Origin: Escherichia coli
Lineage (GTDB): Bacteria; Pseudomonadota; Gammaproteobacteria; Enterobacterales; Enterobacteriaceae
NCBI RefSeq assembly: GCF_009931435.1
Contig: NZ_CP043414.1
Strand: one strand, 5' to 3'
DNA: 64,000 bases
A model generated the notes under the pieces. The model saw only the letters and a program-made list of their open reading frames with translations, was not told where the DNA came from and searched no databases. The translations under genes were made by a program, and so were the position numbers. Shown here one piece after another: positions 6,393-23,179 of the stretch (positions within the stretch are counted from its first letter, which is position 1; each line of letters opens with the position of its first letter).

Positions 6393-7094
6393 TCAGATAA
6401 ACGCAAACGCATCGCCAAACAGGCGGTCTTCCCGCGCATTACGCTCACTGCAAAACAGGTCACGGGCGATTTTCGCCATCTCAAAACGCCCGGCAATGTA
6501 GATATCATGCTCTGCCAGCGTGCCGTGATCCTGCAATACCGCCGTTAACACGGTGCCAGTACGCCCACGCCAACCCGCTTCCGGTTGTTCAACCACCGGC
6601 ACCACTTGCAGACCAGGATGCTTCAGCGAAAGCGCCTCAAGCTCGCAGAGATCATAAAGATGCTGCTCTTCACGCCCCCCCCAGTAAATGGTGATATCAC
6701 GGTTTGGGTTACGCGCCAGCGCCGTCAGCAAAATCGAGCGCGCATAAGAGAACCCGGTGCCACCCGCAATCAAAATCATCGGACGTTCTTCATCATCGCG
6801 CAGCCACGCTTCTCCGTGGGGAATATCGACCACGATTTGATGATCTTTGAGGATACGGTCCATGACTGCTTTCGCGTAAAGGTTGATTTCAGAAGCGCCA
6901 ATATGCAGCTCGATAAACTCTTTTTCATCCGGCGTCGAAGCCATTGAGAATGGACGTTTATCGCGCTCATCCATCACCACCATCAAATACTGACCAGCAC
7001 GAAAAGAAAAGGCCGCGTCTGGCACGATTCGAACACGATATACGGTATCGGTGATAGCTTCTACCGAGGTCACTTTACAGCTTAAGGTTGTCAT
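6393..7094 (-). CDS. fre: NAD(P)H-flavin reductase Fre
   Basis: Track ORF 6393..7127 trimmed to [31 protein letters not shown]... (233 aa). Confidence 0.92.
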
Positions 7095-16288: not shown

Positions 16289-16404
16289 AACGCCTCCAGC
16301 CTCATTACTTACCCGCACAAAATAGAATTGTGCTGTACAAACGTCCAGTTTGAAAGAAGTTTCCTGCGAGGCGCTACGCAAAACGATCCTTAATTTTTAT
16401 TATT

Positions 16405-16444
16405 TTATCCCACAATATGAGACCTAGTTTATATTGTGGGATAA
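16405..16444. promoter_or_regulatory. Perfect 14-bp inverted repeat (TTATCCCACAATAT-N12-ATATTGTGGGATAA), candidate operator for the adjacent IclR-family regulator
   Basis: Read directly in the rmuC / IclR-gene divergent intergenic region, about 60 bp upstream of the regulator ATG. Confidence 0.5.
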
Positions 16445-16503
16445 ATCACCTTTTCCCCACGTCATTATGTGGAACACTTCAGCAATATCATCAGGAGAAA
16501 CGT

Positions 16504-17271
16504 ATGGCAGATACCTCTTCAACCACCGCTGGCGCACAAACGTTATTACGCGGGCTCGCGGTTCTTAATGCTGTTTATAACGGCTGCCATGACCTGAAAA
16601 GTATCGGCGAGTTCACCGGCACGACCCGGAGCACAACCCATCGTTTAGTCACCGTTCTGGTGGAACAACGCTACCTGCGCCACGTCCCAACGCAGGGCTA
16701 CCAACTGGGCGCCAAACTGATCGAATTCGGTGCCAGAGCGCTGGAAAGCACCTCGCTGTACGAAGTTGCGCTGCCCGTTTTGCAACGCCTTGCCCGTTAC
16801 ACCCTGGACACCGTGCATCTGGGGATCGTTGAAGGCGACGAAGTGCTGTATCTGGAGAAGATCAACAGCCAGCGCGGGCTGGAAATGCGCTCACGCCCAG
16901 GCCATCGCATGCCACTGGCAATCACCGGCATCGGCAAGGCATTGATCCTCAACCGAACAGAAGAAGAGTGGCGCACGCTGTTTAAGACCTGTGGTGATGA
17001 AACAAAACTGGGCGCATTTATTCAGAACATGCGTCGTTATGCCGCGAGTGGTTTTGCTTTTGATCTGGAAGAGAACGAGCCGACTATCCGTTGCGTTGCA
17101 GCGCCGGTTTACAACGCCCGGGATGAAATTGTGGCGGCTATTTCTGTCGCCAGTACCACTACGTATATGTCACTGGCGCGTCTGGAAGAACTGGCACCTT
17201 ACGTCAAATCCTGTGCAGAAGAGATATCCGCTGAACTGGGCTGGGGTAAGCACGTCCGCAAAAATAAATAA
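16504..17271 (+). CDS. IclR-family transcriptional regulator
   Basis: Track ORF 16417..17271 trimmed to MADTSSTTAGAQTLLRGLAVLNAV... after an AGGAG RBS; N-terminal HTH plus C-terminal effector domain typical of IclR proteins. Confidence 0.8.
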   Translation: MADTSSTTAGAQTLLRGLAVLNAVYNGCHDLKSIGEFTGTTRSTTHRLVTVLVEQRYLRHVPTQGYQLGAKLIEFGARALESTSLYEVALPVLQRLARYTLDTVHLGIVEGDEVLYLEKINSQRGLEMRSRPGHRMPLAITGIGKALILNRTEEEWRTLFKTCGDETKLGAFIQNMRRYAASGFAFDLEENEPTIRCVAAPVYNARDEIVAAISVASTTTYMSLARLEELAPYVKSCAEEISAELGWGKHVRKNK

Positions 17272-17294
17272 ACCATGACTAAAGGAAACGGCTA

Positions 17295-18299
17295 ATGTCG
17301 GGAAACACCTCATTTATTGCCCTGGACTGGGGAACGTCATCGCTTCGGGCATGGCGTTTTGGCGATTCACCAAATCCACAAGAAAAACGTGAATTCCCGT
17401 GGGGGATCATGAAATTACCCTCCCAGGCAGCAACACGTGAGGACGCTTTCCACGATACGTTTTTACGTGTCTGCGGCGACTGGCTGGCACAATCCCCATG
17501 CCCGGTTCTGGCTTGCGGCATGATCGGCAGTGCGCAAGGGTGGCAACCCGCAGCTTATTTACCTTGCCCGGTCACTCTCGAGGGTCTGGCAAAGCAGTTG
17601 ACGCCTGTTATCCACCAGCAGCAGACAATGCTGCATATTATTCCTGGCGTGATTAAAGAAGGTGAAATGCCCGAAGTAATGCGTGGTGAAGAGACACAAA
17701 TCTTCGGTGCTATCTCGATGGAACCGGCCCTGCAAAACGCGATCCGCCAGGGTATGCCTGTGCTGATTGGCTTACCTGGCACACATGCGAAATGGGCGGT
17801 AGTTGAAAACAACACCATTACCGATTTCCGAACCTTTATGACTGGCGAGTTATTTGATGTTTTATCCCGCCATTCGATTCTCGGTGCCACCATGCGTTCG
17901 GGAGATGAACCGCACTGGGATGCCTTCACCCATGGGCTGACAGCAGCACAAGAGCATCATCAGACCGGATTATTATCGACGCTGTTTTCGACCCGTTCGC
18001 GCCTGCTGACCAGTAATCTTACGCCGTCCTCACAGGGGGATTACCTTTCAGGATTACTGATAGGCCATGAATTATGCGGTCTGGCATCCAGTTTGCTACG
18101 TGATTTACCCGCCACAACACCGATCGCCTTAATCGGTAGCGCCACTCTGAACAGCCGCTATTCACAAGCATTCAGCCACGTTTTTCCCGACAGACAGCTA
18201 CACGCCATTCCTAATGCCACTGAACAGGGGTTATGGCGAATCGCCCACGTTGCCGGGCTACTCTCCACCAACGCCAGGGAATGTACCCATGCCATTTAA
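17295..18299 (+). CDS. 2-dehydro-3-deoxygalactonokinase-like sugar-acid kinase (DgoK family)
   Basis: 334-aa ORF MSGNTSFIALDWGTSSLRAWRF...; N-terminal DWGT(S/T) motif and overall resemblance to DgoK. Confidence 0.7.
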   Translation: MSGNTSFIALDWGTSSLRAWRFGDSPNPQEKREFPWGIMKLPSQAATREDAFHDTFLRVCGDWLAQSPCPVLACGMIGSAQGWQPAAYLPCPVTLEGLAKQLTPVIHQQQTMLHIIPGVIKEGEMPEVMRGEETQIFGAISMEPALQNAIRQGMPVLIGLPGTHAKWAVVENNTITDFRTFMTGELFDVLSRHSILGATMRSGDEPHWDAFTHGLTAAQEHHQTGLLSTLFSTRSRLLTSNLTPSSQGDYLSGLLIGHELCGLASSLLRDLPATTPIALIGSATLNSRYSQAFSHVFPDRQLHAIPNATEQGLWRIAHVAGLLSTNARECTHAI

Positions 18300-18918
18300 T
18301 ACGCTTTTGCAAAAAACCGGGTTAGTCGCCATTTTACGCGGCGTGAAACCGGATGAGATTGTCGCCATCGGTGAAAAGCTGTATGCCGCTGGATTTCGCC
18401 TGATTGAGATTCCCATGAACTCGCCGGAGCCGTTGCAAAGTATCAGTTTACTGCGCGACGCCCTGCCTAAGGACTGCCTGGTCGGAGCCGGAACGGTGCT
18501 TTCGGTGGAGCAAGTCGTCGCGGTTAAAGAGGCTGGAGGCCAGATTATCGTGATGCCGCATTGCGATACTGCGGTGATCCGTCGTGCCCGTGCGCTGGGT
18601 ATGTATTGTGCGCCTGGCGTCGCTACGCCCACCGAAGCTTTTGCTGCCATTGAACATGGCGCCAATGCCATCAAGCTGTTCCCGGCTGAACAAATTACGC
18701 CTGAAGTCACCAAAGCCTGGCGTGCGGTTATTCCACAATCCGTTCCGATGTTACCGGTTGGCGGTATCACTCCAGACACAATGGCGCGTTATCTGAGCCA
18801 CGGCGCAAACGGCTTTGGCCTCGGTTCTGCGCTATATCGCCCCGGCATGACGCCAGAGCAAGTCTATGAAAATGCAGTACTGTTTATGAACGCATGGAAC
18901 AATTTAAATAGCAAATAA
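18289..18918 (+). CDS. KDPG / KDPGal aldolase-family protein (DgoA/Eda-like)
   Basis: Track ORF 18214..18918 trimmed to MPFNTLLQKTGLVAILRGVKPDEIVAIGEKLYAAGF...; overlaps the kinase stop by 11 nt. Confidence 0.7.
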   Translation: MPFNTLLQKTGLVAILRGVKPDEIVAIGEKLYAAGFRLIEIPMNSPEPLQSISLLRDALPKDCLVGAGTVLSVEQVVAVKEAGGQIIVMPHCDTAVIRRARALGMYCAPGVATPTEAFAAIEHGANAIKLFPAEQITPEVTKAWRAVIPQSVPMLPVGGITPDTMARYLSHGANGFGLGSALYRPGMTPEQVYENAVLFMNAWNNLNSK

Positions 18919-18942
18919 CTGATAAATAAGGATATAAAAGCA

Positions 18943-19917
18943 ATGATAAAACATCTTACCTTACCGAAAAAAATGGCTGCAATGGTACTTCTTGCCGGCG
19001 CTGCCCTCAGCACTGCGCCTGTACAGGCGGCCTCCTGGCCAACCAAACAAATCGAGTTAGTCGTACCCTACGCGGCCGGAGGCGGTACGGACCTGGTTGC
19101 CCGAGCCTTTGCTGATGCCGCCAAAAACCATTTACCCGTCAGCATCGGGGTTATCAATAAACCTGGCGGTGGCGGCGCTATCGGCCTGAGTGAAATCGCC
19201 GCTGCCCGCCCTAACGGTTACAAAATGGGTTTAGGCACGGTTGAACTGACCACCCTTCCCAGCCTCGGAATGGTGCGTTTTAAAACCAGCGACTTTAAAC
19301 CCATTGCCCGTCTGAATGCGGATCCGGCGGCTATCACCGTCCGTGCCGATGCGCCGTGGAATAGCTATGAAGAATTTATGACTTACGCCAAAGCGAATCC
19401 CGGAAAAGTACGCATTGGTAACTCAGGCACCGGAGCAATCTGGCATCTGGCGGCAGCTGCACTGGAAGACAAAACGGGCGTGAAGTTTTCTCATGTCCCG
19501 TATGACGGCGCAGCCCCTGCCATTACAGGCCTGTTAGGCGGGCATATTGAAGCGGTTTCCGTAAGCCCAGGTGAAGTTATCAATCATGTGAAAGGCGGCA
19601 AGCTGAAGACACTGGTAGTGATGGCGGATGAACGTATGAAAACCATGCCTGACGTCCCGACGTTAAAAGAGAAAGGCGTTGATCTCTCCATCGGCACCTG
19701 GCGCGGCCTGATTGTGTCGCAAAAAACGCCGCAGGATGTGGTGGATGTGCTGGCAAAGGCAGCAAAAGAGACGGCTGAAGAGCCTGCATTCCAGGATGCA
19801 CTGCAAAAGTTGAATCTCAACTATGCATGGCTTGATGGTGCCAGCTTCCAGACCCAAATCAACGAGCAGGAAAAGTACTTTGACGAGCTTCTGACTCGCC
19901 TGGGCCTGAAAAAATAA
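18943..19917 (+). CDS. Tripartite tricarboxylate transporter periplasmic substrate-binding protein (TctC/Bug family)
   Basis: 324-aa ORF with signal peptide MIKHLTLPKKMAAMVLLAGAALSTAPVQAA; TctC-like sequence. Confidence 0.75.
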   Translation: MIKHLTLPKKMAAMVLLAGAALSTAPVQAASWPTKQIELVVPYAAGGGTDLVARAFADAAKNHLPVSIGVINKPGGGGAIGLSEIAAARPNGYKMGLGTVELTTLPSLGMVRFKTSDFKPIARLNADPAAITVRADAPWNSYEEFMTYAKANPGKVRIGNSGTGAIWHLAAAALEDKTGVKFSHVPYDGAAPAITGLLGGHIEAVSVSPGEVINHVKGGKLKTLVVMADERMKTMPDVPTLKEKGVDLSIGTWRGLIVSQKTPQDVVDVLAKAAKETAEEPAFQDALQKLNLNYAWLDGASFQTQINEQEKYFDELLTRLGLKK

Positions 19918-19933
19918 TCCCGAGGTACGGTCG

Positions 19934-20440
19934 ATGAACACAAAACAGTCTGTTGCTCAACTCGCCGTACCGCACCGCAAGCGCCTTTCATCCACTGTGG
20001 TGGTGGCGCTGTTACTTTGTGTGGTTGCTGGCGCGGTGATAATTAATGCCGCTGATTTTCCAGCAACTGCCATTGAAACGGATCCCGGTGCAAGTGCCTT
20101 CCCTACTTTCTATGCCTGCGCTCTGATTGTGCTCGCTGTCTTACTGGTGATACGCGATCTTTTGCTGGCAAAACCAGTCCCTTGCGCCAACGCACAGGAA
20201 AAACCGGCATTAAGGAAAACGGCAACAGGAATTGCGGCAACCGCGTTTTATATTGTGGCGATGAGCTACTGCGGTTATCTCGTTACTACTCCTGTTTTCC
20301 TCATCGTCATTATGACGTTGATGGGCTACAGGCGATGGGTACTCACTCCGGGTATTGCGCTGCTGTTAACGGCAATCCTCTGGTTGCTGTTTGTCGAAGC
20401 GTTACAGGTGCCATTGCCTGTCGGCACATTTTTCGAATAA
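19934..20440 (+). CDS. Tripartite tricarboxylate transporter small membrane subunit (TctB family)
   Basis: 168-aa hydrophobic ORF between the TctC- and TctA-like genes. Confidence 0.65.
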   Translation: MNTKQSVAQLAVPHRKRLSSTVVVALLLCVVAGAVIINAADFPATAIETDPGASAFPTFYACALIVLAVLLVIRDLLLAKPVPCANAQEKPALRKTATGIAATAFYIVAMSYCGYLVTTPVFLIVIMTLMGYRRWVLTPGIALLLTAILWLLFVEALQVPLPVGTFFE

Positions 20441-20452
20441 CAGGGGCCTGCA

Positions 20453-21943
20453 ATGTTTGAAAGTGAACTTTTAACTCAGGGGTTTTCGACATTACTCAGT
20501 AATCCTCAGGCGCTGCTGTTTGCCACGTTTGGAGTGATGCTGGGTATTATGATTGGCGCTCTGCCTGGCCTGACAGCGACCATGGGTGTGGCGATTTTGC
20601 TGCCTTTCACCTACGGCATGGAGCCTGTTTCTGGCTTGTTGATGATTTGCGGTGTCTTTTTTGGTGGTGTGTATGGTGGTTCTATCACCGCAATTTTGCT
20701 CAAAATTCCCGGTACACCTGCCGCCGCTGCCACCGCCATTGACGGTTATGAGTTAACGAAGCAGGGAAAAGCCGGGCTGGCATTAAGTGCCGCCACGTTC
20801 TCTTCTTTTAGCGGTGGAACGCTCAGCATTATCGTATTGATGTTTCTCTCTCCGGTCCTTGCTAGTTGGGCGTTGAAATTTAGTGCCTCGGAGTCCTTCG
20901 CCCTGGCAACCTTCGGACTGAGCATTATTGCCAGTATTTCCGGTGAGTCGCTGATTAAAGGGCTGATCGCCGGGATTGGCGGATTAATGATCGCAACGAT
21001 AGGCCTCGATCCGATGGGCGGTTTTCCACGCTTTACGGGCGGGTTTGTGGAACTGATGAATGTGCCATTTATCCCGGTGATGATTGGTCTGTTTGCTGCT
21101 TCAGAAGCGTTCCGTTCTATGGAACAAAATCAGCATATTCGTCAGAGCGCGAACGTGGCTATCGGCAGTCTGTTACTGCCCTGGCAAACGCTACGCCGCA
21201 TCGCATTAACCATTTTGCGCTCATCAGGATTAGGGGTTTTTATCGGCATGATCCCCGGTGCGGGGGCAGATATTGCAGCTTTTGTTGCCTATAACGAAAC
21301 TCGTCGTTTCAGTAAGACGCCTGAAAACTTTGGTAAGGGTGAGATTAAGGCGGTGGCCTCCTGTGAGGCAGGCGCGAATGGCTGCACCGGTGGCGCATTG
21401 TTACCTATGCTGACGTTGGGGATCCCAGGCGATGCGGTAACTGCCATCATGCTGGGCGCGTTAACGTTACAAGGGATGCAGCCAGGCCCACTGATGTTTA
21501 CCGACCACGGCGATATGGTTTATACGTTATTTGTCGGCATGATCTTCTGTTACTTCATGCTGCTAGTTCTTGGACTGCTCTCTTTGAAAGTCATCGGTAA
21601 CGTGGTGAAAATTCCCGGCAATATTCTCACACCGATGATCCTCGCACTTTGTGTGGTCGGGACTTATGCGTTGAACAATAGCCTGTTTGATGTTGGCATT
21701 ATGCTGATTGCAGGCGTGGTGGGCTATTTCATGCAAAAAGGGGGATATCCGGCATCACCCGTAGTGCTGGCATTGATTATGGGGCCAATGGCGGAAAGTA
21801 ATTTTCGCCGTGCGCTGTCGCTTTCAGGGGGGTCACTCGACTTCCTGTATACCCGACCGATAACCCTGGCATTGCTGACACTGGCAGCCTTTACGCTACT
21901 GACGCCAATAATACGCAAAATTATGCGCTTACGGCGTCAGTAA
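20453..21943 (+). CDS. Tripartite tricarboxylate transporter large permease (TctA family)
   Basis: 496-aa polytopic membrane ORF MFESELLTQGFSTLLSNPQALLFATFGVMLGIMIGALPGLTATMG...; TctA-like. Confidence 0.75.
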   Translation: MFESELLTQGFSTLLSNPQALLFATFGVMLGIMIGALPGLTATMGVAILLPFTYGMEPVSGLLMICGVFFGGVYGGSITAILLKIPGTPAAAATAIDGYELTKQGKAGLALSAATFSSFSGGTLSIIVLMFLSPVLASWALKFSASESFALATFGLSIIASISGESLIKGLIAGIGGLMIATIGLDPMGGFPRFTGGFVELMNVPFIPVMIGLFAASEAFRSMEQNQHIRQSANVAIGSLLLPWQTLRRIALTILRSSGLGVFIGMIPGAGADIAAFVAYNETRRFSKTPENFGKGEIKAVASCEAGANGCTGGALLPMLTLGIPGDAVTAIMLGALTLQGMQPGPLMFTDHGDMVYTLFVGMIFCYFMLLVLGLLSLKVIGNVVKIPGNILTPMILALCVVGTYALNNSLFDVGIMLIAGVVGYFMQKGGYPASPVVLALIMGPMAESNFRRALSLSGGSLDFLYTRPITLALLTLAAFTLLTPIIRKIMRLRRQ

Positions 21944-21997
21944 TTGATATCGCTCCCCGACGTTGGGGAGTATGAGACTGATGACAAACGCTAAATT

Positions 21998-22100
21998 GCC
22001 TGATGCGCTGCGCTTATCAGGCCTACCACAGAAATGCAATATATTGAATTTGCATGCTTTTGTAGGCCGGATAAGGCGATCACGCCGCATCCGGTATGAA
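21998..22100. repeat. REP element cluster
   Basis: GCCTGATGCGCTGCGCTTATCAGGCCTAC and TGTAGGCCGGATAAGGCG...CCGCATCCGG motifs downstream of the TctA-like gene. Confidence 0.7.
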
Positions 22101-22128
22101 CAAAGGACACGTTAACAACAATCGGAAT

Positions 22129-22157
22129 GCTCCCCTAAGCCAGGGAGCGTTTTTTAT
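22129..22157. terminator. Bidirectional rho-independent terminator between the TctA-like gene and udp
   Basis: Hairpin GCTCCCCTAAGCCAGGGAGC followed by TTTTTTATTT on the + strand; overlaps the udp stop. Confidence 0.65.
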
Positions 22158-22918
22158 TTCAGCAGACGACGCGCCGCTTCCACCACGATTTTCACCGCCT
22201 GGCTTTCGGTTTGTTTCATCGTCTCAGCATTCGGGATCTCTTGCTGGGTACGATTGACGATAACGCCCGCCACCATACCCGCACGCAGGCCCTGGCTTGC
22301 ACACATGGTCAGCAGGGTTGCAGATTCCATTTCATAGTTCATTACGCCCATCGCCTGCCACTCTTCCATAGAACCTTTAAAGTGACGGACTACACGACCA
22401 GAGTAAGTATCGTAACGTTCCTGACCCGGGTAGAAGGTATCAGAAGAAGCCGTCACACCAACGTGAGTGGTGGCACCAATTGACTTCGCCGCTTCAACCA
22501 GCGCGGTCGTACATTCGAAATCTGCGACAGCCGGGAACTCCAGCGGAGCGAAGTGCAGGCTCGCGCCATCCAGACGAACAGACGCCGTGGTCACCAGCAC
22601 ATCGCCGACATTGATATGCGGCTGGATAGCGCCCGTTGTACCGATACGCAGGAAGGTGCGAATGCCCAGCTGTGCCAGCTCTTCAACCGCAATAGAGGTA
22701 GACGGGCCGCCGATACCGGTAGAGCAGACGATAACAGGTTTACCATCCAGCTCTGCACGCCAGGTGGTGAATTCGCGGTGAGATGCCAGCTTAACCGGCT
22801 TATCCATCAGCGCGGCGATCTTTTCCACACGATCCGGGTCGCCAGGGACGATGGCAAGCGTAGCCCCTTGTAAATCGTTTTTAGTGAGGCCGAGATGAAA
22901 AACATCAGACTTGGACAT
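22154..22918 (-). CDS. udp: Uridine phosphorylase Udp
   Basis: Track ORF 22154..22924 trimmed to [31 protein letters not shown]... with AGGAG RBS. Confidence 0.93.
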
Positions 22919-23179
22919 ATACAACTCCTCTGTGAATCGGTTTAGTCAGAAGAAGCAAAAAGACACTTTACCGAAGGGTTTAACATTTTTTCGTGACACT
23001 CATCACCTTGATGCAAATGCGTTGCATAAATTTACCCAGCAAAAGTGATGCGAATCACATAAATCACTCTTCATTCTGCATGACTGCATAAAAGATGAGC
23101 CGATTCAGGCAATGTGATTTGTTGCATGCTGACTATAGTTAACATTGCGCAACATTTTTATAAGGGTACGGAGAATACC

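Follow-up and report, generated by a model that had tools for sequence, protein, structure and literature searches.

The long inverted repeat that lies between rmuC and the neighbouring IclR-family gene is probably the operator of that regulator. With good though not full confidence, we predict a two-box site for a dimer of dimers, through which the adjacent sugar-acid regulator would repress an operon for taking up and degrading sugar acids. The repeat sits in a 216-bp gap within the window, by which we mean the whole 64-kb stretch of Escherichia coli DNA that was analysed (Table 1). An inverted-repeat search found its arms to be complementary at 15 of 15 positions on either side of a 12-nt spacer, one pair more than the perfect 14/14 dyad with the same spacer that a first, sequence-only reading had described. 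That reading had also placed the dyad between rmuC and the IclR gene at about 60 bp before the ATG, and the right arm indeed ends 58 bp before the ATG at 16504. The window holds no other perfect inverted repeat of at least 15 nt with a spacer of at most 60, and 200 shuffles gave a mean of 0.01 such repeats per window; a chance origin of the dyad is excluded. No further copy of an arm occurs in the window apart from one chance match with three mismatches. The outer three to four pairs of the dyad are private to the lineage of the window, and the pair 16405/16444 is formed in one of eight distinct Escherichia sequences, that of the window itself. The conserved symmetric core of the dyad comprises 11 bp, TCCCACAATAT / ATATTGTGGGA.

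The dyad is most likely an ordinary type of bacterial switch and not an insertion scar, and no general principle is changed by this result. What it offers is a concrete model of operator and promoter for an accessory catabolic operon, so far uncharacterised, that is found in about a quarter of E. coli genomes, together with a cross-phylum recognition motif that is usable for annotating the regulator subfamily or for building a sugar-acid biosensor.

Table 1. Features of the dyad region and of the accessory segment, in window coordinates
Feature	Position	Strand	Basis or remark
rmuC	GTG start about 16288	-	NF007686, 1061 bits
Accessory segment, relative to island-free E. coli K-12	16384..22159		alignment
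Left arm, 15-bp repeat TTTATCCCACAATAT	16404..16418		repeat search
Box 1 TCCCACAATATGAGA, 15-bp pseudo-palindrome of type TCCCA-N5-TGGGA, strong half left	16408..16422		nearly invariant in 8 Escherichia sequences
Linker, 4 bp, CCTA in the window	16423..16426		unconstrained, 4/4 positions vary
Box 2 GTTTATATTGTGGGA, strong half right	16427..16441		invariant in 8 Escherichia sequences
Right arm, 15-bp repeat ATATTGTGGGATAAA	16431..16445		repeat search
CRP-like site TGTGG-GATAAA-TCACC	16435-16449		consensus match; overlaps box 2 and right arm
Candidate weak -10 hexamer AACACT	16473..16478	+	inferred from geometry to the CRP-like site
Shine-Dalgarno AGGAG of the regulator gene	16494..16498	+	sequence reading
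IclR-family regulator gene, 255 aa	16504..17271	+	HTH_IclR and IclR_C domains
2-dehydro-3-deoxygalactonokinase-like gene (dgoK-like, DGOK family)	17295..18299	+	domain search and RefSeq annotation
2-dehydro-3-deoxy-6-phosphogalactonate aldolase-like gene (dgoA-like, KDPGal-aldolase family)	18289..18918	+	profile/domain match
tctC	18943-19917	+	tripartite tricarboxylate-type transporter
tctB	19934-20440	+	tripartite tricarboxylate-type transporter
tctA	20453-21943	+	tripartite tricarboxylate-type transporter

Related boxes at dgoK and dgoA loci of other genera

The 11-mer TCCCACAATAT was derived from Escherichia, and it recurs with 11 of 11 positions at -84 of a regulator-dgoK-dgoA locus in the myxobacterium Vitiosangium. 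There it is the sole match of at least 9/11 in 8.76 kb of a GC-rich genome and forms part of a 15-bp palindrome, TCCCATATTGTGGGA; the Vitiosangium regulator is 50% identical to that of the window. Homologues of 52-72% identity were fetched with their gene context after the box had been defined. All of the later-fetched loci, from the enterobacterium L022 (TCCCACATATAGGGA), Phytobacter (TCCCACATATTGGGA), Brenneria (TCCCTATATATGGGA), Collimonas (TCCCAATATATGGGA, divergent from dgoK-dgoA-dgoD) and Xylophilus (TCCCATATATAGGGA), carry a box matching at 9-10 of 10 positions upstream of the regulator gene. Related boxes were found in eight other lineages.

Nine boxes score at least 9/10 in 105.6 kb of non-Escherichia loci, and eight of them are placed at -129 to -38 relative to the regulator start. 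The window itself contains three boxes at this threshold, one of them in the dyad, a number that matches the chance rate of about 2 per 64 kb. Furthermore, in nine of nine lineages the strong box has a weaker companion at a distance of 19-20 bp, the summed second-box score being 52 at offset 20 and 21-39 at offsets other than 19-20.

In the Pseudomonas locus L034, where the regulator gene is 5 kb downstream, a 15-mer identical to box 1, TCCCACAATATGAGA, stands 100 bp upstream of dgoK, with a second box, AATTACATATTGAGA, at +20 from it. Here, where the regulator gene and the operon are apart, the boxes follow the operon and not the regulator gene, as had been predicted. A Citrobacter-like locus (L033) has the arrangement TCCCTATATATGAAA-CACGA-GTTTATAATGTGGTA upstream of regulator-dgoK-dgoA-tctCBA. 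In Klebsiella the same type of box also precedes the regulator/dgoK operon and was found through its TCCCA/TGGGA ends; the 11-mer core misses the Klebsiella sites owing to divergence in the middle of the box. No clear box was seen directly upstream of the regulator gene in Burkholderia (L028) or Serratia (L024).

The boxes and the same genes occur together at unrelated chromosomal positions in Brenneria, Pseudomonas, Collimonas and Vitiosangium. By these sequence comparisons, the dyad has at its core a sequence-specific element that goes with this regulator subfamily and with its dgoK/dgoA targets. The sequence-only reading had taken the dyad for an operator, probably of the IclR protein, and this part of it is strengthened by the co-occurrence of the core with regulator/dgoK loci in distant taxa.

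A related arrangement was seen in five MAG loci (L009, L010, L012, L018 and L019), where TCCCACATACTAATA-CGGG-TACCACATAATGAGA stands at -82 to -49 of an IclR gene. The regulators there are 46-48% identical, and the start of the divergent gene was read as that of an L-rhamnonate dehydratase gene, an RhmR-like context. The two boxes of these sites are spaced at 19 bp, as in the window, and their half-sites are related. The sites suggest that a recognition code may be common to sugar-acid IclR subfamilies.

The regulator, the CRP-like site and the promoter model

The protein encoded at 16504-17268 scores well above the cut-offs for both domains of the family (36 bits against 22 for PF09339, 129 against 24 for PF01614), and RefSeq genomes annotate it as IclR family. 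It reaches no NCBIfam equivalog cut-off, its best match being BhcR (142 against 350) and its second-best KdgR (127 against 275, E = 6.6e-37). The recognition-helix stretch RST(T/A)HRL is kept in all 11 aligned homologues (52-71% identity), and one homologue from Collimonas is labelled 'D-galactonate regulator' by its source. The protein is probably a DgoR-like sugar-acid regulator, distinct from the GntR-type DgoR of K-12. Literature searches returned no experimental study of this E. coli operon, regulator or operator. Only 23 bp separate the regulator gene from the kinase gene, so that a single operon driven from the dyad region is the simplest reading; the regulator gene and the dgoK-like gene are probably co-transcribed.

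Several known systems resemble this locus in part. The dgoRKADT operon of K-12 shares the chemistry of kinase and aldolase (DGOK and KDPGal-aldolase families), and in both cases the pathway regulator is encoded first; K-12 differs in having the GntR-family DgoR where an IclR-type protein is found here, the MFS transporter DgoT where TctCBA is found here, and another chromosomal position. Because the regulator families differ, the K-12 dgo operator is unrelated to that of the window. KdgR represses keto-deoxy sugar-acid genes (2-keto-3-deoxygluconate, pectin catabolism) through palindromic operators. Its box sequence differs from the one described here, and the window regulator is not KdgR, since its score against that family is far below the cut-off. 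E. coli IclR recognises TGGAAAT-N-ATTTCCA. Both IclR and TtgV of Pseudomonas putida (PDB 2XRO) have the HTH_IclR plus IclR_C architecture of the window regulator, and their operators resemble the window's in being long (about 34-42 bp), with two sub-sites on one face of the DNA at the promoter. The recognition sequence differs, being TCCCA-N5-TGGGA here, as does the effector class, and the present site is a prediction made from sequence. The gene combination of the window, an IclR regulator with dgoK and a TTT-family transporter, is also that of the 'GalR' locus of Salinivirga, for which comparative genomics has predicted uptake and use of D-galactonate or a compound of that type (Leyn et al. 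2017, PMC5507952). The Escherichia island, in contrast, is without the dgoD dehydratase gene, and the likeness to 'GalR' is one of gene content. The element described here is so far only a predicted member of a well-known kind of operator.

A CRP-like site overlaps box 2 and the right arm. The 22-mer at 16432-16453, a predicted site, agrees with the consensus of TGTGA-N6-TCACA type at 15 of 22 positions. The motif TGTG-N7-TCAC is centred 61-63 bp before the ATG in Escherichia, L022, Phytobacter and Klebsiella, and is almost absent elsewhere in those enterobacterial loci. In the other genera the CRP-like site begins 2-3 bp past box 2; Escherichia is about 10 bp shorter there, and for this reason box 2 overlaps the left half of the CRP-like site, by 7 bp. 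The candidate -10 hexamer is weak, and AATACT in L022 and CAGAAT in Klebsiella were read at the same offset. If this is a class II CRP promoter, transcription would start near 16485, and the centre of the CRP-like site would lie about 42 bp upstream of that start. A simple sigma-70 scan called no promoter on the + strand at its threshold. At the promoter of udp, CytR acts by anti-activation through a protein-protein contact with CRP. The promoter of the present operon would resemble that of udp in being a catabolic promoter at which the CRP site is overlapped by, or interleaved with, the site of a dedicated repressor, whereas simple overlap and competition would operate here.

Other candidate elements in this stretch were set aside. 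A promoter with its -10, TATATT (16430-16435), in box 2 and its -35 in box 1 was dropped because the CRP-like site stands at a fixed distance from the ATG and the boxes do not, being displaced by about 10 bp from one genus to another. Another CRP-like stretch, TGTGGAACACTTCAGC (16469-16484), is too near the ATG and is not conserved in L022, and TTATCCCACA can be likened to a DnaA box only by allowing a 1-bp insertion against TTATCCACA.

IclR-family proteins are reported to act on DNA as dimers or tetramers, with TtgV as an example of a tetramer on its operator, and those that repress do so by occluding RNA polymerase; the family also includes activators (bioRxiv 10.1101/2023.07.27.550818). In the model that we favour, each box would be bound by one dimer, giving a tetramer (a dimer of dimers) on the full site. 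With no inducer present, CRP and RNA polymerase would be kept out by the bound regulator. Repression would shut the single operon regulator-dgoK-dgoA-tctCBA, the regulator's own gene included, until 2-keto-3-deoxy-galactonate or a galactonate-type sugar acid released the regulator as inducer. The sequence itself, the way it is conserved, its cross-phylum association with the regulator/dgoK genes and the spacing of its two boxes are shown; we infer that the protein binds and in what stoichiometry, that it represses and does not activate, what CRP does, where the promoter lies and which compound is the inducer.

The same operator might instead serve an activator, or a dual regulator cooperating with CRP, bound at about -51 and -70. 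We regard this as unlikely, though it is the alternative with most to be said for it. With a start near 16485, the box centres at 16434 and 16415 would sit upstream of the core promoter, as activators do, and no good -35 hexamer is present; activators do occur in the IclR family, and the best NCBIfam match of the regulator is BhcR. Against an activator stands the position of the strong box in Collimonas and Xylophilus, where it lies only 38-43 bp before the start codon of the regulator, inside the divergent dgoK promoter region, a position more typical of a repressor. Moreover, the overlap of box 2 with the CRP-like site in Escherichia favours competition. Sugar-acid relatives within the IclR family, such as KdgR, are repressors.

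A more far-reaching view can be put forward only tentatively, and it may well prove wrong. The loss of about 10 bp in Escherichia may have fused box 2 with the CRP site, in such a way that the 7-bp TGTGGGA (16435-16441) would be read by regulator and CRP alike, and the box may be the signature of a cross-phylum regulon. Given this loss relative to Klebsiella, Phytobacter and L022, repression would amount to direct competition with CRP. If this view is true, TCCCA-N5-TGGGA paired at 19-20 bp marks an IclR-type keto-deoxy-galactonate regulon that spans Gamma- and Betaproteobacteria as well as Myxococcota and is experimentally undescribed.

Conservation of boxes and arms within Escherichia

Eight intact Escherichia sequences were compared, namely those of the window, four E. 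coli lineages, E. coli SCPM-O-B-8794, E. whittamii and Escherichia sp. E1V33. The two boxes, whose centres are 19 bp apart, both lie 58-96 bp before the regulator ATG. Variable sites number 2 of 30 in the boxes against 27 of 90 elsewhere (Fisher p=0.012), a value that is partly post hoc since the box boundaries were set after six of the eight sequences had been viewed. When the same sequences are divided by arms, 6 of 30 sites vary in the arms against 23 of 90 elsewhere (p=0.63). The cross-genus tests are not post hoc in this way and weigh more, because the partition into boxes was partly drawn after seeing the data. Within the arms, positions 16406 and 16442-16444 vary; the latter are the three positions just outside box 2 and fall within the N6 spacer of the CRP-like site. 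No variation occurs in the asymmetric inner bases, GAGA (16419-16422) and GTTT (16427-16430). Box 2 of Escherichia scores only 6/10 against the family pattern, and the overlapping CRP-like site could account for part of its conservation.

The pair of boxes reads as one long perfect dyad because the strong halves face outward. The sequence-only reading had supposed a dimeric site composed of two 14-bp halves, and the perfect 15/15 symmetry speaks for a single dimer recognising both 14-15-bp arms across the 12-bp spacer. Such a dimer is nonetheless very improbable. Conservation follows the two 15-bp boxes, in that the outer 3-4 bp of the arms vary and the asymmetric inner bases are kept, and the relatives have compact 15-bp palindromes accompanied by a second box. 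The strong outer half-sites are 29 bp apart in the window, against 10 bp between the TCCCA and TGGGA half-sites within the family box. Since 10 bp is the normal reach of a helix-turn-helix dimer, one dimer cannot span the strong halves. Two dimers, one on each box and separated by about two helical turns along the same face of the helix, fit better.

One further E. coli sequence, that of strain HS-02 (L030, 301-396), has a degraded left end of the island, with indels in box 1 (ATCCACAATATGAGA) and a shortened linker. This copy has no annotated regulator gene and is either a decaying remnant or an assembly error.

A role for the dyad as a hairpin in RNA or DNA, whether as terminator, attenuator, 5'-UTR structure or cruciform, has a negligible probability: the RNA does fold to an 18-pair stem of -22.1 kcal/mol (z = -7.1), but the eight Escherichia sequences hold no compensatory pair and four that are simply broken, covariation does not exceed that of shuffled data (the observed score is reached in 136 of 500 shuffles), the AT-rich stem has no U-tract and was not called by a terminator scan, the 15-bp palindromes of distant relatives are too short for stable folding, and with the putative promoter the dyad would not be transcribed.

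The accessory segment, its junctions and the flanking genes

The accessory segment is 5.8 kb long and contains the IclR regulator, the dgoK-like kinase, the dgoA-like aldolase and tctCBA only; udp follows tctCBA on the opposite strand. Of 5426 complete E. coli genomes, 1456 have the 120-bp island-side intergenic region (16384-16503), as a single copy each, and 3970 are without it; a dispersed repeat (REP/BIME or MITE) was rejected on this distribution. Carriers of the segment include BL21, APEC O1, NC101 and ST131. No complete E. coli genome is 100% identical to the window over 16384-16503, the best reaching 98.3%. The same island adjoins rmuC in E. whittamii, two Klebsiella species and the enterobacterium L022, and adjoins ubiE in Phytobacter.

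The island-free genomes of MG1655 and O157:H7 align only to about position 16383 of the window, and alignment with island-free K-12 locates the left junction at 16383/16384; the dyad stands 20 bp to its right. The right junction is the udp stop codon and holds only terminator and REP sequences. The dyad is thus close to the left boundary of the segment, and the sequence-only reading had offered, as its alternative, that it marks the insertion junction. We give this suggestion almost no credence, whether the mark is seen as an att site or as a mobile element's terminal repeat. K-12 homology ends short of the dyad, which has no second copy at the right end or anywhere in the window. Neither junction shows a flanking direct repeat or target duplication, and neither a domain search nor the annotation revealed a recombinase, integrase or transposase gene in the island. 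Additionally, the dyad region occupies exactly one place per genome in the 1456 E. coli carriers, and the boxes accompany the same genes at unrelated positions in the four genera named above. The dyad thus belongs to the island yet is no junction structure.

The island varies in content and setting among related bacteria. In Phytobacter massiliensis (L023, 3211-3501) it lies directly beside ubiE, with no rmuC called between them. Escherichia sp. E1V33 (L005, about 6412-6767) has the regulator, dgoK and dgoA beside rmuC, is without tctCBA and has udp directly after; its operator boxes are intact. The Citrobacter-like contig L033 (2311-8765) holds two IclR-family genes in the island, one before dgoK (52% identical to the window regulator) and one after tctA (60%), and has a second DGOK gene and an Fe-ADH gene divergently upstream of the island.

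On the rmuC side, a LexA-box-like CTG-N10-CAG motif, CTGTACAAACGTCCAG (16333-16348), overlaps what is likely to be the promoter of rmuC; Escherichia and Klebsiella share this motif, and L022 has it in slightly altered form. The rmuC gene (yigN) is listed among the genes of the SOS/LexA regulon (PMC6590174). An action of the dyad on either of the divergent promoters, which the first reading had allowed for, is doubtful, as the rmuC promoter and the LexA-like box lie wholly in core DNA. Because that box is entirely in DNA common to island-free strains, control of rmuC is probably independent of the dyad.

On the udp side, the window contains about 177 bp of extra sequence (21971-22147) between the tctA terminator hairpin (CTCCCCGACGTTGGGGAG, 21953-21970) and udp. 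This stretch is missing in BL21 and present in E. coli 2013C-4282, and it includes REP/BIME-like palindromes, GCCTGATGCGCTGCGCTTATCAGGCCTAC ... GTAGGCCGGATAAGGCG. In island strains the 3' end of udp (22154-22159) reads ...CTGCTGAAATAA, giving a 765-bp gene with an extra C-terminal Lys; in K-12 it reads ...CTGCTGTAA and the gene measures 762 bp. The udp terminator of K-12 is replaced in island strains by one that is shared with tctA. Upstream of udp, TGTGATTCGCATCAC (23045-23059, - strand) is a good CRP-type motif and the window's other well-placed TGTG-N7-TCAC, in keeping with the known control of udp by CRP and CytR.
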